DNA of 64,000 bases from positions 13,535 to 77,534 of the IMG/VR virus record IMGVR_UViG_3300042504_002519. The stretch is one strand, 5' to 3'. A program made the translations under genes and the position numbers. A model generated the notes under the pieces. It ran no database searches. It had not been told where the DNA came from and worked only from the letters and a program-made list of their open reading frames with translations. Source of the stretch: a virus. Shown here piece after piece: positions 5,451-63,098 of this stretch (the stretch's first letter is position 1; every line of letters begins with the position of its first letter).

Positions 5451-5538
5451 CTAGATCCTAGGAATAGACTAACACGATCCCTTATAGGGAACGGCGAAAC
5501 TCATAAGGGAAACCTATCAAGAGGATACTAGGAACTAC

Positions 5539-5568
5539 TTGACAGATACCAAGCCCAGGCCCTACTAT
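5539..5568 (+). promoter_or_regulatory. Sigma70-type promoter for the rightward early operon
   Basis: TTGACA-N18-TACTAT, divergent from the XRE gene. Confidence 0.6.
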
Positions 5569-6910: not shown

Positions 6911-7092
6911 GCGCCACCATCGCCCGGCTGCGCCCCTGCCTGGCCGGGCGGCTATCCATTTTTCTGCATACACGGGCCCAGTACTTACGCCAGATCATTG
7001 CTAGGCACCCTGAGGATGGGGCTGCACAGCACGAACTGGAGCTAGTGCTAGCCCAGATCCGATACCTACCCTTTATTGAGGAACGACCATGA
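6907..7092 (+). CDS. Hypothetical protein
   Basis: Overlapping stop/start coupling on both sides. Confidence 0.5.
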   Translation: MSATIARLRPCLAGRLSIFLHTRAQYLRQIIARHPEDGAAQHELELVLAQIRYLPFIEERP

Positions 7093-7469
7093 ACTTACCC
7101 GCTGACCCTACCCGCACCGAGATCTTGGCCTACCTGCTGGCCTACTCAGCCTACTGGCGGGGTGAACTAGAGAGCGCTATGGATGCGGCCAATGTGCCGT
7201 CGAGCAGCATTAACGCCATCCAGGGCGACTTATCTGCCGCCCTGTTTGCTGAAACGACCATGAACTTACCCGCTGACCCTACCCGCTCCGAGGTGCTGGC
7301 CTACCTGCTGGCCTACTCAGCCTACTGGCGGGGTGAACTAGAGAGCGCTATGGATGCGGCCAATGTGCCGTCGAGCAGCATTAACGCCATCCAGGGCGAC
7401 TTATCTGCCGCCCTGTTTGCTGAAATGGCCAGAGTAAACCAAGCCCGTATGGAGGATGACGGCCTATGA
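7089..7469 (+). CDS. Hypothetical protein made of a 171-bp tandem duplication
   Basis: MNLPADPTR... occurs twice, ATGs at 7089 and 7260. Confidence 0.55.
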   Translation: MNLPADPTRTEILAYLLAYSAYWRGELESAMDAANVPSSSINAIQGDLSAALFAETTMNLPADPTRSEVLAYLLAYSAYWRGELESAMDAANVPSSSINAIQGDLSAALFAEMARVNQARMEDDGL

Positions 7470-7626
7470 AACGACGTAAACCCCTGGCCGACAACGTAGC
7501 TGCTGAGCTACGCCGAGAACTACGGCAGCAGCAGGCACAGCAAGGCCAGCAAGGCCAGGAACCCCAGCAAAGCCAGCAACAGGGCTGGCAGGAACAGATA
7601 CAGCAACAACTAGACGAGGTGTACTA

Positions 7627-7815
7627 ATGGCAACTTATGTTTTTACCTGGGAGAAGGCCTATGCTAGCGGAGTGCTAGAGGGCAGCTCGACTGTCCAGAT
7701 CACCAGTGGGGATATTCGCATGGGCATCACCGCTGCTCAATTGCAGATAGCCCAGCTTCACTCAGTCTCACCTAATGAAGTCCACATCCGCGATATCCAA
7801 CGGGTTAGGCTCTAG
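7627..7815 (+). CDS. Hypothetical protein
   Basis: GAGG RBS; last gene before the terminator. Confidence 0.55.
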   Translation: MATYVFTWEKAYASGVLEGSSTVQITSGDIRMGITAAQLQIAQLHSVSPNEVHIRDIQRVRL

Positions 7816-7841
7816 CTAGCGAAGCTTTTTTGCTGCCATCT

Positions 7842-7868
7842 AAACCCCGGCTATAAGCTGGGGTTTTT
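7842..7868 (+). terminator. Intrinsic terminator
   Basis: AAACCCCGGC-TATAA-GCTGGGGTTTTT. Confidence 0.75.
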
Positions 7869-7907
7869 GCTTTGGGCACTATTTAAGTAAGTGCTGGTTG
7901 TAACAAA

Positions 7908-8768
7908 ATGTTGACCACGCGACGGCTATCAGATGAAGTCCTCGAAATCCGGATCCGCTACACCGGGGAGGAAACCTATCACTTTTTGTTGGCCAGCGAC
8001 ATTCACCTGGATAACCCAAAGTGTGATCGCAAGTTATTCTTTTCTCACCTCGACAAAATGAAGGCTCTCGGTGGTAGGGCCTTATTTTTTGGTGATGTGC
8101 TATGCCTGATGCAGGGCAAGCGCGACAAGCGGGGCAGCAAGGCCAGCATTCGCCCCGAGCACCAGGGCGCCAACTACTTTGACTTGGTATTCAAGGAGTC
8201 CGCTGACATTCTGGCACCCTACGGCCAGGAGATCCTAATGATGGGCAACGGCAACCATGAGACAGCCATCATCAACCACCAGGAGATAGATCCCCTGGCT
8301 AATGTGGTACAGCAGCTGCGGGGCCGCCACGGGGCCATCACCGAGCACATGGGCTATCAGGGCTGGATCCGGTTTGTGTTTTACAAAGAACGGGGCCGAG
8401 GCGTCGAGGCTGTTCGGCGGTGCAACCTGTTCTTTCACCACGGGGCCTGGGGTGGTATTGTCACCAAGGGCACCATGGGCGGTGGCCGGTATGCCAGCAT
8501 TGCACCGGACGCGGATATTATCGTCAATGGCCACAATCACGAGCGCAGCATCGTTTCTCACCCTTGCTACCGGTTGATCGAAACCGGCAAGGTGCGGGTG
8601 ACGCCCCGATACCACGTGCAGTCTGGCACCTACAAGGAGGAGTTCGCTGGTAGCAACGGCTGGGCGGTGGAGCGGATCGTCATGCCGAAATCTCTAGGCG
8701 GCGTCTGGCTGAGGCTGACTCCCACTAAGTCCGCTGGCGTTGTGGTTTCACTGGAACCGGCTAGCTGA
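7908..8768 (+). CDS. Calcineurin-like metallophosphoesterase
   Basis: SDIH, GD, GNHE, HHG and GHNH motifs. Confidence 0.85.
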   Translation: MLTTRRLSDEVLEIRIRYTGEETYHFLLASDIHLDNPKCDRKLFFSHLDKMKALGGRALFFGDVLCLMQGKRDKRGSKASIRPEHQGANYFDLVFKESADILAPYGQEILMMGNGNHETAIINHQEIDPLANVVQQLRGRHGAITEHMGYQGWIRFVFYKERGRGVEAVRRCNLFFHHGAWGGIVTKGTMGGGRYASIAPDADIIVNGHNHERSIVSHPCYRLIETGKVRVTPRYHVQSGTYKEEFAGSNGWAVERIVMPKSLGGVWLRLTPTKSAGVVVSLEPAS

Positions 8769-8780
8769 AATCGGTTAACT

Positions 8781-8824
8781 GTGCTATAGTAAAGGACAGG
8801 AACCTTGAAAATTTGGTGGTAAGT
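8781..8824 (+). promoter_or_regulatory. Leader of array A: extended -10 plus boxA
   Basis: TGCTATAGT followed by GAACCTTGAAAA; 36/44 identical to the array B leader. Confidence 0.75.
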
Positions 8825-8826
8825 CG

Positions 8827-9330
8827 ACCCACTTTGGTGGGAGTTTTTCAAGGTCTATCGTCAGTCACCCCTGCTACCGGCTATACTGGCCTGGATCCCA
8901 CTTCGGTGGGGGTTTTTCGCACTCAGTCGGTAGCCACTCGCGGCCAGCGCCAAAGCCTACCCCACCCCAGTGGGGGTTTATCTGGGAGTTTTTCGCCACC
9001 CCTGCTACCGGATGATCGAAACCACGCTGGCCTGGATCCCACCCTGGTGGGCGTTTTTCGCTCGATAAGGGATCCCCATTTTGGTGGGGGTGTATCCGAA
9101 GACTGGCAACGATATGGCCCCACTTCGGTGGGAGTGGTTCTTTCCCCGTGGTTAGCCCCGCGCTGGTGGGGGTGGCTCTCGCTTTGTGCCCGCCCCACCC
9201 TGGTGGGAGTTCGTCCCAACTCTGGTTGTACCCCATCCTGGTGGGGGTTTATCTTGACTATGGCGACTCCCCACTGCTGTGGGAGTGTGTCAATCTGCAG
9301 TTCGCCCCCCACTCTGGTGGGAGTAAAACC
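8827..9330 (+). CRISPR. Degenerate type I-E-like array A (11 repeats plus 1 partial)
   Basis: Hairpins at 8827, 8896, 8960, 9037, 9074, 9118, 9156, 9193, 9231, 9269, 9307; periods 69/64/77, then 37-44 nt. Confidence 0.75.
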
Positions 9331-9380
9331 CAATTGTAAGCAAATTGCGGTAGACTGGATTTGTTAGATGCACCACTCCG

Positions 9381-9405
9381 ACCCCGGCCACGGCTGGGGT
9401 TTTTT
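9381..9405 (+). terminator. Intrinsic terminator closing the array A transcript
   Basis: ACCCCGGCC-AC-GGCTGGGGTTTTTT. Confidence 0.75.
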
Positions 9406-9427
9406 GTTGCCTGGGCATTCTGGATCC

Positions 9428-10051
9428 ATGGCAACCAAGAAACCCACACCAAAGCTACGATCCAAGCATGCGCCCAAGCCAGCACCTGGTGCTAGGCGGG
9501 GCAACCGGCAGGTGGTAAAAACGTCCGGCCAGCCTGCTACGCCAGCCTGCAAGGAGCGGGCTTTTGAGCTGTACTGCGAGCTGGGGCCTCAATGGGCTGA
9601 AATATCCAGGCGACTGAAGGGCGAAGGCTTTAACCGCTGTGGCAATACCACGATCAGCGGCTGGGCCAAAGCAGGCGACTGGCACGCCAGAAAGCTGGCT
9701 TTGTCGGAGTCACCAGGCGAAGCGGCAAAGGTGCCCCACAAGGCCAAAGTAGCACCGCCCCCACCGCCTGCTACGGACATAGGCAGCTACCGCACCAAAA
9801 AGACCAACCTGGAGCACGTCAGGACGGCGATTGAGCAGGTGGTGCAGTCGATCTGCGACGCACGGGCCACCAGCGACCTGCGGGCCATTGGCAGCTTGGC
9901 TACGGCGTTGGTAAAGCTGATTGAGTTGGAAGGCAAATTGAGCCCCGCCACGGCATCCGAGCTAGCAGCCAGGGCCGTAGATCTGGGCCTGGATCCAGAG
10001 CAATTTATGGCCGCATTGGCGGAGCAATGGCGGATCGCCAAGGCTGGCTAG
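9428..10051 (+). CDS. HTH protein, probable terminase small subunit (DUF1804-like)
   Basis: RAFELY...AEISRRL...TTISGWAKAGDW pattern with a helical C-terminus; preceded by the late motif. Confidence 0.5.
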   Translation: MATKKPTPKLRSKHAPKPAPGARRGNRQVVKTSGQPATPACKERAFELYCELGPQWAEISRRLKGEGFNRCGNTTISGWAKAGDWHARKLALSESPGEAAKVPHKAKVAPPPPPATDIGSYRTKKTNLEHVRTAIEQVVQSICDARATSDLRAIGSLATALVKLIELEGKLSPATASELAARAVDLGLDPEQFMAALAEQWRIAKAG

Positions 10052-10681
10052 AACCCCCACCGTGGTGGGGATAGCCTAGCAAGTGAACAACGCCCACAGG
10101 GGTGGGGATGGTTTGACGAGGGAGAGACGCCCACGGAGGTGGGGCTGCGTCTTGCAGGCAGGATCAACGCCCACCAAAGTGGGGCTGGCTGCAAGGACGA
10201 GAGACCCCCACGGTGGTGGGATGTGATGCAGTTCTAGGAAGTACTCCCACCGAAGTGGGGAGGTGTTTGCGAGGGAGCTATCCACCGCCGCTAGGGTTTC
10301 CTTAGCGAGAAACCCCCACCGAAGTGGGGAGGTGTTTGCGAGTTGCCTAGCAGCTCCCCCAGGTTGGCCTGCTCGAGGAACCCCCACCGAAGTGGGGTGT
10401 GCTTGCGAGATGGCTAGGGTGATGGCACCCGACCTAGTAAGGCCAGAGAAACCCCCACCGGAGTGGGGTGTGCTTTGCGAGGGCCCAGCTGGATACCGTG
10501 GCATCGGAGCTATCCACCGAGAAACCCCCACCGGAGTGGGGTGTGCTTTGCGAGGACCGCCAAGCAACTTTAAGCAGGTGAAACAAAATGAGGAGAAACC
10601 CCCACCGAAGTGGGGAGGTGGTTGCGAGACACGGCGCTGGCCGATAGCCAAAACCACGAAAAACCCCCACCGGAGTAGGAT
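10047..10681 (-). CRISPR. Degenerate type I-E-like array B (12 repeats)
   Basis: Long repeat CTCGCAAACACCTCCCCACTTCGGTGGGGGTTTCTC with 29-38-nt spacers (periods 65-74), then five 37-40-nt units. Confidence 0.8.
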
Positions 10682-10689
10682 CCACCGTC

Positions 10690-10733
10690 ACTTACCACCA
10701 AGTTGTCAAGGTTCCTACCTACCACTATAGCAC
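10690..10733 (-). promoter_or_regulatory. Leader of array B: extended -10 plus boxA
   Basis: Reverse complement GTGCTATAGT-N7-AGGAACCTTGACAACTTGGTGGTAAGT. Confidence 0.75.
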
Positions 10734-10782
10734 GGATCCACCAGCCTGGGCACCCTATAAAAAATTCTCTGAGGGATCCACC

Positions 10783-10935
10783 ATGAGCGAGGACATCAAA
10801 GCCCAGGTCCGGGCCATTGCCCATGAAATTGCCCGCCGCGAGGTCTTTGAACACGAGCTCCGCTTCACTTTGTCCGGTGCCCTGCTGGGCGCTGTCGCGA
10901 TGCTAGCCTGGCTGGTAGCCACGGGGCGGTTCTGA
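10783..10935 (+). CDS. Small membrane protein
   Basis: MSEDIKAQ...SGALLGAVAMLAWLVATGRF (manual translation). Confidence 0.5.
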   Translation: MSEDIKAQVRAIAHEIARREVFEHELRFTLSGALLGAVAMLAWLVATGRF

Positions 10936-11201
10936 TGGACCTCCAGGCCATGCTGGATGAGCTAGACCGGCTAGGGGCCATCCTGGACGAGCTGGCCGGG
11001 GACAAGCCACAGCCACCCGGCTGGCCGCTGGGGGCGGATGAGGTTGACTATGGCCATGACATTCTGATCCGCCTGGACCGGGAAGAACCCTGCCGGATAT
11101 GCCAGCAGTTGGCCAACTGGGGATCGCTGTTATTGGGTGAGTATGTCTGCGGCCAGGGCTGCTACGATACCTTGATCTCCCCGTCCTGGGATCCTGCATA
11201 G
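10935..11201 (+). CDS. Hypothetical protein with CxxC...CxxxC
   Basis: TGATG coupling; Cys pattern. Confidence 0.5.
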   Translation: MDLQAMLDELDRLGAILDELAGDKPQPPGWPLGADEVDYGHDILIRLDREEPCRICQQLANWGSLLLGEYVCGQGCYDTLISPSWDPA

Positions 11202-11596
11202 CCTTCCTTGGCCAGCAGGAACCGCCCATCATAGCCATCCCCCACAAAAGCCCGCACAGCTTCGTAACCGACTGGCTGGATATACCAGACATAGGCAAAG
11301 TTCTTGGCCTCAGCGGTGCCTAGCAGGGTAGCTAGCTGGGCCGCTGTCACCTGAAGCAGGCCAGCTTGGCTGCTAGCGGTATTGGTGCTGCGGGTGATGC
11401 CAGATCCTATCGACAGGCTAAGGGCTGGCGTGGTGCTGATCGGCTTGAATTTCTTATCCAACTCAAAGAATCGCACCGATATGCTGGCGTTGACATAGTT
11501 GGTGACGGTATCGGCACTGGGGCGGGTAAACTGCCAGCTAAGCCCGGCTAGGCCAGCTCCTGCCAGCACCGTCTTTCCATTGAGTGCATCAGTCAC
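11162..11596 (-). CDS. Hypothetical virion protein (end of fibre cluster)
   Basis: Beta-rich ORF overlapping the upstream stop; start uncertain. Confidence 0.5.
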   Translation of the reverse strand: MTDALNGKTVLAGAGLAGLSWQFTRPSADTVTNYVNASISVRFFELDKKFKPISTTPALSLSIGSGITRSTNTASSQAGLLQVTAAQLATLLGTAEAKNFAYVWYIQPVGYEAVRAFVGDGYDGRFLLAKEGYAGSQDGEIKVS

Positions 11597-11870
11597 AATC
11601 GCAGTCCTCCAAGGTAAGTGTGGGCGCAATGGATCCAATATTCAGCCCTGCCATGATCGCCGCTACCGCTAGGGCTGGGGCCAGGGTGGCTAGGTCCAGG
11701 CTAGGGGCTAGGCTGGCCAGCGATAGGCTAGGGTGCTGGGCCAGTAGATGCAGGGCAGGGGCGAGGCTATCCAGGTGGATGCAGGGGATGCACTGCACGA
11801 TCAGCAGGGCGATTCCAGGGTGCAGCCCGAGGGGATAGAGGGTGCCGGTTAAGCCGAGTGGGTAGAGCAT
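11589..11870 (-). CDS. Small repetitive protein
   Basis: LYPLGL twice, LAP(A/S)L three times; GGGAG RBS. Confidence 0.45.
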   Translation of the reverse strand: MLYPLGLTGTLYPLGLHPGIALLIVQCIPCIHLDSLAPALHLLAQHPSLSLASLAPSLDLATLAPALAVAAIMAGLNIGSIAPTLTLEDCDCD

Positions 11871-11933
11871 GGGGCTAGCTCCCTACCTTTTTGCTGGCGT
11901 CGGGAATATGGTTCATGGCTGAGGACAAGGGAT

Positions 11934-12734
11934 TTAGACATTAGGGGCAAAGTTTTTGTAAGGGTGATCGTTTGGAAGAGAGCCTGTTAAACCGTATTTA
12001 TGGGCGAAATAGCCTTCAACAAGCTGACGATTCGTCGTATCCCAAGCTTGACTGGATATAAGAACTTCGCCAATTTTTCCGTTGTAATTCAAGCTTGAAT
12101 CTGAATAGTTACCAAGAATCCAGTTAATCCCGCCAGTGGGTGTGGCAGCTAGGCTACCTGTAAAAGAGGTTATTAAGCTCCCCGATAAGTAAGCATCTCC
12201 AGTACTCTCAGAGGTTTTTATTAAAATAAAAAAAGTGGTTGTTCCAGCAACGGCGAAATTAGTATTCTCTGCATAGGTCCTAAAATTACCAGAGTTGTCA
12301 CCCCAATATAATCCTGCATTGGACGAAGATGAGTTAAGTTCAACCAGATGGCTCCAAGGCCCTGCTGGTTGATGAATTATTACGGGTGAATTGCTGACAA
12401 CATCTGGTTTGATCACAAATGCTTTGCTGTAGGTGTTATCAAACTGTAAAAGCGTAGTCGAGTTAGAAATAGTCAGACTATCGTTAGTTCCATCAAAATC
12501 AATAGCTGGGTTGCCATTGATTTCTGAGGCTAGATAACCCGGCCTGAGGCTTTCTGTAGATTGCGTAGCATGGCGATCATTGCCACTTTTGTCCCGCCAC
12601 TCAGATACAGAATCGCTCACCAAGGTCAGAGTGCTAGCATCATCTGCCTCTAGCCACAGCTCGTTATTGCTTAGCTGCGCTGGCGTCCATAGGTTAGTCG
12701 CCACATAGCTAGTTCGGCGTCGATGAATACTCAT
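11934..12734 (-). CDS. Putative receptor-binding protein (LamG/ConA-like)
   Basis: WLEADD...VSEWRDKSGN...FDGTND...GKIGEVLI...VEGYFAHKYGL; AT-richer core. Confidence 0.65.
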   Translation of the reverse strand: MSIHRRRTSYVATNLWTPAQLSNNELWLEADDASTLTLVSDSVSEWRDKSGNDRHATQSTESLRPGYLASEINGNPAIDFDGTNDSLTISNSTTLLQFDNTYSKAFVIKPDVVSNSPVIIHQPAGPWSHLVELNSSSSNAGLYWGDNSGNFRTYAENTNFAVAGTTTFFILIKTSESTGDAYLSGSLITSFTGSLAATPTGGINWILGNYSDSSLNYNGKIGEVLISSQAWDTTNRQLVEGYFAHKYGLTGSLPNDHPYKNFAPNV

Positions 12735-19341: not shown

Positions 19342-19397
19342 CTCCCACCATTGTGGGGCCTGCATCCCCTGGCCGAACCACTCCCACGCATGTGGGC
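19335..19397 (-). CRISPR. Two-repeat mini unit of the same hairpin family (39-nt period)
   Basis: Reverse complement GCCCACATGCGTGGGAGTGGTTCG-N15-CCCCACAATGGTGGGAGTCAAC. Confidence 0.55.
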
Positions 19398-54205: not shown

Positions 54206-54380
54206 GGGTTTTTCCCCCACCCCGTGGGGCCTGTCAAAAGCTACCGATCCACCCCCACCACAGCGGGGCCATCAACCCTGTAAGAGCCACCCCCACCTAG
54301 TGGGGCACAGGAGCTAAACCGATCAACTCCCACCGTAGTGGGCCAAAGAGTCGCATAGATCCACCCCCACACCCGTGGGG
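54206..54380 (-). CRISPR. Array C: 5 hairpin repeats, 37-38-nt period
   Basis: Hairpins at 54215, 54253, 54291, 54328, 54365; handles GTGGATCT, GTTGATCG, GTGGCTCT, GTGGATCG. Confidence 0.65.
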
Positions 54381-57922: not shown

Positions 57923-58839
57923 GCGTGTTCCCTCTGTTGGTGTTGGTTCATCTCCCGACGCACCCGCTCGTCATAGCTTTCCGTGGCCAGCTTAGCCTTT
58001 GGCCTGGCTGGCTGCAGGCTGGCTTGGTACTCAGCCCAGAGATATTCCAGTTTATCCCATTTGCCATCTCGCTCCAAGTTTGACACATGGTACATCGCCT
58101 TCGTCTTAGGGTTCATCTGCCCGTCAACAACAATGTGCTTGCCAGCAACCATGAACTCGCAGAACTTTGGCAAGATCTTGCCCCACCCATTCTCCCGCCA
58201 CGGCCTGGGCGCAAACTGGGCCGCGAATGGATCAGGCTTGGATGGATCCACTGCGGCCACCGGCGCGGCGGCGGGCGGCGCAACAGTTCTTTCCGGATCC
58301 AGCTTGCTGGTTTTCACTTTTTTTTCATTTTTGACAGGCGCAATAAAAAAAAGATCTTTGGATAGATCATCTGGATCTGTTCTTACTGGATAGATCGTCT
58401 GCAGATTCTGCACCCCCTCCCCTGCAGATTCTGCAGGCCCCCCCTGCATATTCTGCAGTACCCCCTGCATATTCTGCAGGCCCCCCCCTGCATATTCTGC
58501 AGTGGGGCGGGGTAATTTTGGGTCTGGTTCTGGATCCAGATCATTGGTTTGGATGGCACCAAAGTCGATGAATTGATCGCTTGAGGTTCGGCCGCCATCA
58601 GCCCTGAACCGATCAGTTAGCTGCAGGATGCCTTTAGCCTTGAGGCTATCCCGGGTTTGGTAGATCACTCGCTGACAAAGGCTAGTCATCCTGGCCTGGG
58701 TTTCCACTGACGGCCAGCACCGCCCGTCAGCGCCGATAAAGCTATTCAGGCAAAGTAGTAACAGCTTTTCGTTGCGGCTAAGGCTGGACTCCCAGATGAT
58801 TTGCTCGCGTTGATAAGCAGGGAGGAAAGTTGCGCCCAT
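57919..58839 (-). CDS. Replication initiator (N-terminal winged helix)
   Basis: CWPSVET.A....L..R.I......L...G.L; internal iterons; upstream of dnaB. Confidence 0.8.
   Translation of the reverse strand: MGATFLPAYQREQIIWESSLSRNEKLLLLCLNSFIGADGRCWPSVETQARMTSLCQRVIYQTRDSLKAKGILQLTDRFRADGGRTSSDQFIDFGAIQTNDLDPEPDPKLPRPTAEYAGGGLQNMQGVLQNMQGGPAESAGEGVQNLQTIYPVRTDPDDLSKDLFFIAPVKNEKKVKTSKLDPERTVAPPAAAPVAAVDPSKPDPFAAQFAPRPWRENGWGKILPKFCEFMVAGKHIVVDGQMNPKTKAMYHVSNLERDGKWDKLEYLWAEYQASLQPARPKAKLATESYDERVRREMNQHQQREHA
58399..58502. repeat. Origin iterons inside the initiator gene
   Basis: CTGCA(G/T)ATTCTGCA five times at about 22-bp spacing, next to A/T tracts. Confidence 0.8.
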
Positions 58840-62414: not shown

Positions 62415-62498
62415 CCCCACGCTAGTGGGGGTGGATCTGATGGCCTTTTTGCCGTTTTAGCCGCGTTCCCAAGACCCCACCATTGTGGGGGTGAGCGG
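62415..62498 (+). CRISPR. Repeat-spacer-repeat mini-array D (60-nt period)
   Basis: CCCCACGCTAGTGGGGGTGGATCT-spacer-CCCCACCATTGTGGGGGTGAGCGG. Confidence 0.65.
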
Positions 62499-62523: not shown

Positions 62524-62688
62524 ATGCACCATGACCACGCCGACGGCCTTCTCGCCATCTTAGCCACCGCCATTTTTGTGGTGGGGCTTTTTGTTGGCTT
62601 TAGCCTGGGTGCCGACCTGTGCCAGCAAAAAGCCAATGGCCCGCTGCTATGGCGGCAATTGTCCACCTTCATCCTTGGAGAACCTTGA
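62524..62688 (+). CDS. Small membrane protein
   Basis: MHHDHADGLLAILATAIFVVGLFVGFSLG. Confidence 0.5.
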   Translation: MHHDHADGLLAILATAIFVVGLFVGFSLGADLCQQKANGPLLWRQLSTFILGEP

Positions 62689-62690
62689 CA

Positions 62691-63098
62691 ATGGATCCAC
62701 TTACAAAGCCTAGATGCCAGGACATGGTATCGACTCCCGCCCCCCAGGACGCCAATTACCTGCTATGGGGCCCGCAAGAATACCCGCTGGAGGCTGGCCT
62801 CAGCCCCCGGGAATCCTGGTTTGAGTTAGATGCTGCGGGCGTCTGCGACATTCGTGGGTTGACCCAGCAGGGCCAGGCGATCCCCGTTGATCAGTCGCTG
62901 GTGACTACTGAACCTGTACCCGTGGCTGAGCCGGTTGCTGCGGTGGCCGAGCCCGCTGGCCCGCCCTGGCTGTTCCTGGCCGTGCTAGCTGTCCTGGTGG
63001 CCATGGTGGCTGGCAGTGTGACGATGGATCGCCGCCGCCGGGCCACCGATCCCACGCCCAAGCCCGAGAACCCTTACGCTGGAGGGCTGGATCAATGA
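62691..63098 (+). CDS. Membrane protein (start uncertain)
   Basis: C-terminal transmembrane helix followed by RRRR. Confidence 0.55.
   Translation: MDPLTKPRCQDMVSTPAPQDANYLLWGPQEYPLEAGLSPRESWFELDAAGVCDIRGLTQQGQAIPVDQSLVTTEPVPVAEPVAAVAEPAGPPWLFLAVLAVLVAMVAGSVTMDRRRRATDPTPKPENPYAGGLDQ

Follow-up and report, generated by a model that had tools for sequence, protein, structure and literature searches.

Cyanobacterial-type boxA elements in the leaders of convergent CRISPR arrays of a lake-water phage

The stretch of DNA analysed here (the window) is 64,000 nucleotides (nt) long and corresponds to bases 13535-77534 of a 77.5-kb virus record in IMG/VR (IMGVR_UViG_3300042504_002519). Sequence of the array region described below was detected in many lake-water metagenomes and, in part, also in six RNA libraries. 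Positions are those of the window unless genome positions are named. Between 8781 and 10733 two convergent CRISPR (clustered regularly interspaced short palindromic repeat) arrays, A and B, flank a single gene, and each is headed by a short leader in which a promoter-like -10 box is followed by a boxA-like element. A blastn search with 8700-10800 produced no match among GenBank phages, and no Rfam family was matched in the window. The features of the module are as follows.

8781..8790, + strand: extended -10 box of array A, GTGCTATAGT, consisting of TGn and TATAGT, with no conserved -35
8800..8811, + strand: boxA-like element heading array A, GAACCTTGAAAA, identical to the boxA of the cyanobacterial internal transcribed spacer (ITS)
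8813..8824, + strand: linker TTGGTGGTAAGT, G/U-rich, between boxA and the first repeat
8828..9329, + strand: CRISPR array A, 11 units, with three long leader-proximal spacers followed by short spacers of 14-21 nt
9380..9407, + strand: intrinsic terminator of array A, a 9-bp stem (9380-9401) and T6, about 20 nt before the next ATG
9428..10051, + strand: gene between the arrays, 207 amino acids; a putative N-terminal three-helix domain of Myb/SANT type spans about residues 35-92 and the C-terminal half is helical; restricted to this phage group
10048..10679, - strand: CRISPR array B, 12 units, with six long spacers and full 36-nt repeats followed by five short units
10690..10733, - strand: leader of array B, with the -10 box GTGCTATAGT at 10733-10724, boxA GAACCTTGACAA at 10714-10703 and the linker TTGGTGGTAAGT at 10701-10690

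Aligned without gaps, the leader at 8781-8824 (+) agrees with the reverse complement of 10690-10733 at 36 of 44 positions, and the spacing is equal. This had been claimed in an earlier reading made from the letters alone (the sequence-only reading); re-alignment returned the same count and a repeat finder recovered the pair as inverted repeat I3 (44 nt, 82%). In both leaders GTGCTATAGT is followed after 9 nt by GAACCTTGA(A/C)AA and, 1 nt further on, by TTGGTGGTAAGT. The -10 boxes (TGCTATAGT and TGCTATACT) carry TGn directly before a hexamer that agrees with TATAAT at 5/6 positions, and across the 24 leaders described below the box is invariant but for two positions, as expected of a sigma-70 extended -10 element. 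TGnTATAnT sites are rare: there are six in the 77.5-kb genome, four of them at array heads. The boxA of array A matches the cyanobacterial ITS boxA at 12/12 positions and that of array B (10703-10714) at 11/12. In the window the word GAACCTTGAMAA has exactly three occurrences (8800 +, 10703 - and 62680 +), where 0.22 are expected even with one mismatch, and a fourth copy lies outside the window in the same genome, where it heads another array. The cassette is present at the head of all four arrays of the genome.

Folding of the leader RNAs gave no structure that beats shuffled sequences (z -1.3 to +1.2), a result that is neutral for the interpretation below. The boxA of array A (8800-8811) can pair with 8844-8855 (UUUUCAAGGU), which comprises the handle of the first repeat and the first 5 nt of spacer 1. 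The pairing encloses the first repeat in a long hairpin (minimum free energy -17.8 kcal/mol, z -1.3). It is absent from the other leaders and is probably due to chance.

The leaders were compared among relatives of the phage. Five related IMG/VR records (G001-G005) were retrieved by a pattern scan, and in aligned flanking stretches the relatives are ~87-91% identical. Six viral and ten metagenome contigs yielded 27 leaders in all (24 distinct); the pattern used for the metagenome scan fixed the -10 box and the first repeat only, so the test of boxA is not circular. In every one of the 24 distinct leaders GTG(C/G)TATA(G/C)T is followed, 7-9 nt on, by [GA][AGC]A[CT][CAT]TTGA[AC]AA[CT]TT. The boxA core A(C/T)NTTGAMAA is therefore retained throughout, always on the sense strand of the array (24/24) and always located after the -10 box and ahead of the first repeat. 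Within this set the -10 boxes agree at a mean pairwise identity of 95%, the boxA 12-mers at 85% and the spacers separating the two at 66%. The distance from boxA to the first repeat varies from 15 to 28 nt with many indels, and 5' of the -10 box no sequence is common to arrays at different genome positions. Among the 24 leaders the boxA variants are GAACCTTGACAA (6), GGACATTGACAA (4), GCACATTGACAA (3), GGACATTGAAAA (3), GAACCTTGAAAA (2), GAACTTTGAAAA (2) and four singletons; leader variants of this phage group include GAACCUUGAAAA, GAACCUUGACAA, GGACAUUGACAA and GCACAUUGACAA. Because the flanking leader drifts and gains indels around a fixed -10 box and boxA core, the alignment argues for selection on these two elements. 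Lack of conservation in relatives, named beforehand as an outcome that would have counted against the motif, was thus looked for and not seen. The whole module is also shared: G001 and G003 have the same convergent array pair around the same gene, and G002 retains array B and has lost array A except for two distal units.

The repeats themselves follow the pattern CCCAC-N4-GTGGG + RGTNNNTC, of which the genome holds about 60 copies, most of them in four oriented clusters. Their starts, in genome positions, are as follows.

2923, - strand: first array
8378, + strand: second array
22315, + strand: array A
24267, - strand: array B

Leader-proximal repeats are 36 nt long (CTCGCAAAGCACAC plus the core) and are separated by spacers of ~27-43 nt; distal units consist of the 22-23-nt core only, with spacers of 14-21 nt. 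Two repeat flavours (..AAGCACAC and ..AACACCTC) are intermixed inside the arrays. The distal units of array A are common to G001 and G003, and the proximal spacers differ. Between the first two arrays (genome 3291-7277) lies a reduced type I-E-like cas set with Cas6e (PF08798, 1e-26), Cas7e (PF09344, 2e-66, also TIGR01869) and a short Cas5e (TIGR01868, 4e-31), so that the genome combines four oriented arrays with a type I-E-derived cas6e-cas7e-cas5e, 14 kb from arrays A and B. Compared with type I-E systems, the hairpin repeat, the 8-nt 3' handle and the cognate cas6e, cas7e and cas5e in the same genome were found, and uniform ~32-nt spacers, Cas3 and Cas1-Cas2 were not. Searches for Cas1 (PF01867) and the Cas3 core (TIGR01587) found neither in this record nor in G001-G003, one of which has terminal repeats, with the caveat that these records may be incomplete. 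Since hairpin repeats, shared cassettes and cas6e/cas7e/cas5e occur together in one genome, the arrays are genuine CRISPR arrays, and the system to which they belong is phage-borne, reduced and type I-E-like. The proposal that arrays A and B share a promoter and boxA leader therefore holds, the two leaders being paralogous cassettes at the heads of true arrays.

Several open reading frames (ORFs) accompany the cas genes. One of 220 amino acids has a D...EVK motif and a weak, sub-threshold match to SfsA (restriction-endonuclease-like), and a divergent one of 366 amino acids belongs to no family. In the interval that separates cas5e from the second array, an ORF (genome 7459-8010) has a C-terminal Rho_N/SAP-like motif (PF07498, just under the cut-off).

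The polarity of the arrays is agreed upon by four features: the promoter and boxA on the sense strand, the terminator, the turnover of proximal spacers, and the Cas6e-type hairpin with its 8-nt handle. Array A had been described as ending at a terminator, and the 9-bp stem with T6 bears this out, being conserved in G001-G003 with compensatory stem changes. For array B, a terminator scan found nothing comparable, again in line with what had been read from the letters. The sole terminator-like site beyond it is weak and lies inside gene 9428-10051 (9547-9527, -). The last array B unit overlaps the TAG stop of this gene, into which array B transcripts would run antisense. Within the 3.6 kb of 7700-11300 there are 19 terminator-like sites, against 3.6 +/- 2.3 in shuffled sequences. 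Most of them are the repeats, in which a G+C-rich hairpin with a tetraloop precedes GUUUUUC or GUUUCUC.

Lone or paired repeat cores are also found between genes, distant from any leader, at 19344-19396, 54254-54379 and 62416-62489 of the window and at genome positions 1028-1102, 5515-5565, 7285-7376 and 12374. Such isolated cores could act on mRNAs, either as sites for Cas6e processing or as terminators.

The motif had been named as the boxA of cyanobacterial rRNA (rrn) operons, and this identification stands. In a taxonomic study of Thermoleptolyngbya, boxA (GAACCTTGAAAA) is an invariant domain of the 16S-23S spacer (PMC8461337). The 12-mer, with A or C at position 10, was found in 121/151 sampled Cyanobacteriota genomes, and large genomes of the phylum hold up to 22 copies of it, compared with 0-5 for a reversed control. 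Annotating GAACCTTGAAAA as boxA is consistent with general practice for the cyanobacterial ITS. Several cyanobacterial genomes have the A and C variants in multi-copy contexts made up of a -10-like box, a short hairpin and the 12-mer, with four tRNA genes following ~75 nt after one of them. The 3 kb downstream of these multi-copy contexts contained neither rRNA nor an Rfam match, and the identity of the 12-mer as rrn boxA rests on the literature, not on rRNA neighbours in the sampled genomes. In three genomes (G020, G035 and G123) there are 5-22 copies of a unit of -10-like box, short hairpin and GAACCTTGA(A/C)AA, after which conserved and seemingly non-coding sequence continues for a few hundred bases. 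The rrn boxA of E. coli has in common with the cyanobacterial boxA the positions that are invariant in the phage leaders (C4, U6, U7, A9, A11 and A12).

In the published cases, boxA elements 5' of CRISPR arrays promote expression of distal spacers by blocking Rho on the long untranslated RNA (Stringer et al. 2020, as reported in PMC7862264 and PMC13753749), an effect also demonstrated on a synthetic array (PMC7862264). Rho (TIGR00767) was detected above the family cut-off in 23/101 sampled genomes of the phylum and not in the remaining 78/101. By hand count, the 20 largest Rho-less genomes contain ~208 copies of the motif compared with 50 of the control, and the 17 Rho-bearing genomes common to both samples contain ~20 compared with 10. 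Given these enrichments, the boxA motif marks the Rho-less part of the phylum. With 78/101 genomes lacking Rho, the anti-Rho rationale probably does not carry over to this phage: for a host within that Rho-less part, it would not be Rho that threatens transcription of the arrays. The claim that boxA antitermination protects CRISPR transcripts thus agrees with the published mechanism (via PMC7862264 and PMC13753749), with the exception that protection from Rho is probably not transferable.

A cyanobacterial host, also put forward in the sequence-only reading, is plausible for the phage, although no prophage, matching repeat or close relative of its Cas7e or portal was found to go with it. A scan for the repeat in 185,579 species genomes returned scattered single chance matches, with no array and no prophage. 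In 401 Cyanobacteriota genomes there is no close prophage; Cas7e is present in 3/401 (at most 42% identical) and the portal in 27/401 (at most 44%). The best genome (G076) was rejected as the host: the surroundings of its cas locus have 68% G+C and contain no boxA-like word. The portal of the phage (22292-23998) is Mu-like and 34-40% identical to those of RcapMu, JBD67 and Ralstonia phages. Its top matches among known phages are Ralstonia and Pseudomonas phages, with a few Nodularia or 'cyanophage' records, and by sequence similarity these affinities do not decide the host.

The available RNA evidence consists of assembled Logan contigs, which carry no strand, ends or level and come from runs picked by this stretch. 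Four RNA runs were mapped on 7000-12000. Three of them, from two freshwater studies, cover only 8670-10673 and an 87-nt piece at 11162-11248, while the fourth, from a marsh, covers flanking genes also. An exact 239-nt RNA contig (9133-9371) stops just 5' of the array A terminator, and an exact 122-nt piece of a 139-nt contig (10022-10143) spans the boundary between the gene end and array B. Variant arrays of relatives are also among the RNA contigs, at the highest depth seen. In the three freshwater runs, coverage of the arrays between nearly empty flanks is weak evidence for their transcription.

The interpretation judged fairly probable is that the leader is a compact cassette of an extended -10 promoter and a boxA that loads Nus factors, driving processive transcription of the precursor of the CRISPR RNAs (pre-crRNA). 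The TGCTATAsT box, extended and without a -35, would be read by a sigma-70-type polymerase and would place the start 6-8 nt on, at ~8796-8798 (+) for array A and at 10718-10716 (-) for array B. The first ~16 nt of the pre-crRNA would then hold a boxA identical or near-identical to that of cyanobacterial rrn (about +3 to +16), followed by the G/U-rich linker and a first repeat shortened at its 5' end. The boxA RNA would load host NusB-S10, together with NusA and NusG, onto RNA polymerase and make it processive. The modified polymerase may then read through the 7-13 terminator-like repeats, and the phage Cas6e would cut the transcript into crRNAs. Read-through of the repeats is proposed because they look like intrinsic terminators (the 19 sites against 3.6 +/- 2.3 above), and we infer that this, rather than a defence against Rho, is the likelier role of boxA.

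Several points weigh against this interpretation. The boxA would lie only ~3-5 nt from the predicted 5' end, and the phage leader has no boxB hairpin of the kind present in host-type contexts. The canonical 12-mer is found in only 2/24 leaders and some leader 12-mers (GGACATTGACAA and GCACATTGACAA) deviate at three positions, their binding of NusB-S10 being putative. RNA-library contigs give neither strand nor ends, and the start site is a predicted one. The searches for a prophage, a matching repeat and a close Cas7e or portal yielded no host. Finally, activity against hairpin terminators exceeds the established role of boxA, because the E. coli rrn antitermination complex is known mainly for its action against Rho and pausing, and 78/101 of the sampled genomes lack Rho.

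Other explanations of the leader have been considered. The block after the promoter could act as DNA, either as a site where a Cas1-Cas2 supplied in trans anchors to the leader (or an IHF-like site) or as the operator of the Myb-like protein or another phage or host regulator, with the likeness to boxA being incidental. Proximal spacers turn over and distal units are shared, which points to integration or recombination at the leader end; no Cas1 was found in this record or in G001-G003, so a docking site for a foreign integrase would be sensible, and the block adjoins the predicted start site, a common position for operators. However, an exact 12/12 match to the boxA of the clade within a ~30-nt leader has a chance of the order of 1e-6. 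The side facing the leader-repeat junction, which integrases read, is also the most length-variable part of the leader (15-28 nt), the invariant positions of the block are those common to the E. coli and cyanobacterial boxA, type I-E systems seldom occur in the phylum (3/401 genomes have Cas7e, with identities of at most 42%), and the intermixed repeat flavours fit recombination better than copying of the first repeat. As a full explanation a DNA signal is unlikely; a DNA-level role for part of the leader is possible and would leave the exact boxA unexplained. The motif could also be kept by recent common descent alone, the four leaders being young duplicates and the boxA-like word having no function of its own. 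The leaders are clearly paralogous and the relatives are close (~87-91%), but the 7-9 nt between the elements are only 66% identical and the linker has indels, while the -10 box and boxA core are fixed in all 24; the upstream sequence is, moreover, unrelated between arrays at different genome positions. Descent without function is accordingly held to be quite improbable, a little more so than the DNA signal.

Two further explanations are given very little credence. The complement of the leader (TTGTCA ... 15-17 nt ... TATAGC) resembles a divergent promoter firing away from the array, and in leader B, on the opposite strand, TTGTCA and TATAGC are 17 nt apart and face a gene at 10783-10935. Such a gene lies in that direction at only 1/4 leaders, and at the rest transcription would run antisense into upstream genes or terminators. 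The -10 hexamer would end in C and not in the critical T, and in the A variant the -35 would be TTTTCA. The divergent promoter was rejected for these reasons (1/4 leaders fitted, C at the end of the -10). It is just as hard to credit that the boxA RNAs are decoys: short boxA-bearing transcripts from four strong promoters would, during infection, draw NusB-S10 off the rRNA operons of the host. Four copies per genome at the extreme 5' end of abundant processed RNAs would suit a decoy, and phages are known to take over host transcription; nothing seen here is evidence for it, however, the motif is always coupled to arrays, which a decoy would not need, and the leader fragment left after Cas6e cleavage would be only ~50 nt. 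The cassette driving processive pre-crRNA is therefore retained as the preferred interpretation.

The gene enclosed by the arrays (9428-10051) had been called a helix-turn-helix (HTH) gene. No Pfam or PHROG family was found for it, and its homologues form seven clusters, all from this phage group. An AlphaFold model from a shallow alignment has three helices in residues 39-92 (predicted local distance difference test score 80-90). The best domain matches of these residues are Myb R2R3 (6kks, Z 6.7, root-mean-square deviation (rmsd) 2.0 over 50 residues) and c-Myb R2 (1mbg, Z 6.3, rmsd 1.6 over 49 residues), with the caveat that Z values of 6.3-6.7 lie within the range of common helical arrangements. 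Searching the PDB with the model in Foldseek returned no meaningful match, and in phmmer the protein matches Myb at E 0.47. An HTH protein is thus a reasonable prediction from the model: the three-helix Myb-like fold agrees with it, but the match is moderate and no family backs it. Only ~20 nt separate the T-run of the array A terminator from the ATG of the gene, which would be expressed either through read-through from array A or from an unrecognised promoter.

A small number of spacers show similarity to genes of related phages. In array A, the spacers at 8850-8895 and 8983-9036 resemble an upstream exonuclease-like gene at 8559-8585, matching the relatives' alleles at 26/27 positions and the phage's own at 25/27. 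Gene 9428-10051 is itself resembled, at 9661-9683 and 9925-9951, by spacers of relatives (the first of array B in G003, 24/27, and the eighth in G005, 21/23), and the array/gene module sits at a spot apparently targeted by the spacers of rival phages. Local BLAST of 114 spacers against six related records gave few imperfect matches only, and two leader-proximal array B spacers had no exact match in IMG/VR. These few resemblances suggest, from sequence similarity, that the spacers may be used against competitors. An extended scheme, regarded as doubtful, would join these elements: in a Rho-less cyanobacterial host the boxA-modified polymerase would pass the repeats and, in part, the terminator, so that array A and the Myb-like gene would form one operon under antisense control from array B, with a role in conflict between phages.

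The third copy of the 12-mer was also followed up.

62680..62691, + strand: third GAACCTTGACAA, containing the TGA stop of a small hydrophobic membrane-protein ORF (...ILGEP*), with the next ATG 2 nt on

The string is present as had been reported, but it marks a coding junction and not a leader: at this site there is no -10 box at the leader spacing and no array downstream. In relatives the word is kept in G001, whereas G002 has GAGCC---ATAA, 3 nt shorter, with the protein end ...GEP* preserved. With the motif replaced in G002 at an ORF stop/start junction, the site was ruled out as a leader and is treated as a coding coincidence.

Elsewhere in the genome, a tyrosine integrase is encoded at genome 8873-9847. 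At 7082-7425 of the window a 171-bp unit is present in 2.0 tandem copies (97% identical) inside ORF 7089-7469, where it doubles a 57-residue protein segment. Another tandem array, at 58399-58503, consists of 4.7 copies of a 22-23-nt unit (CTGCAGATTCTGCAG and a C-run) with a short palindrome inside, and is possibly an iteron or operator cluster. The whole genome contains 80 copies of GGATCC, where base composition predicts 23 and a Markov model 61; the word often appears as TGGATCCA and beside array edges or start codons. No copy of the cyanobacterial HIP1 word GCGATCGC occurs in the genome.

If the boxA of these leaders is functional, the phage plugs its own CRISPR weaponry into the rRNA transcription machinery of its host, and the leaders offer a simple test of Nus-factor antitermination where Rho is absent. 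Should the operon scheme in a Rho-less host be true, it would be a case of Rho-independent boxA antitermination used in inter-phage conflict. For multiplex guide arrays in cyanobacteria, the ~45-nt cassette of extended -10 box and boxA could also serve as a compact driver.

Compared with known systems, the leaders come closest to the boxA-bearing CRISPR leaders of Salmonella and other bacteria (Stringer et al. 2020, to the extent reported in PMC7862264 and PMC13753749). Both have the rrn boxA of the clade on the sense strand between promoter and first repeat in a type I-E-like context, and both have the same presumed purpose, full-length transcription of a long untranslated RNA. In the phage, however, the arrays are virus-borne and number four per genome, the boxA is of cyanobacterial type and lies near the predicted 5' end, and the threat would be the terminator-like repeats in a likely host clade that is mostly Rho-less. 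With the boxB-boxA of the cyanobacterial rrn leader and 16S-23S spacer, the phage leader shares an identical 12-mer (GAACCTTGAAAA); the C variant also occurs in cyanobacterial genomes, and a TGCTATAA-type -10 box is found in one multi-copy host context (L088). Unlike these, the phage leader has neither boxB nor the GGGTTC box ~11 nt downstream, and its ~45 nt are followed by CRISPR repeats and not by rRNA. Phage-borne arrays are also known from the type I-F system of Vibrio phage ICP1 (PMC6452262) and from cyanophages such as vB_AphaS-CL131 (as described in PMC6293099); here, effector genes are present as well. In comparison with what these sources describe for the two phages, the present system is type I-E-derived, no Cas3 or Cas1 was found in it, its arrays are two-tiered (long, then very short spacers) and two of them converge on a gene. 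A CRISPR leader that borrows the rrn antitermination signal through a boxA is therefore of an already known kind. New here are the phage carrier with a reduced type I-E effector, the cyanobacterial-type boxA, the compact cassette heading four arrays and, probably, a host clade that lacks Rho.

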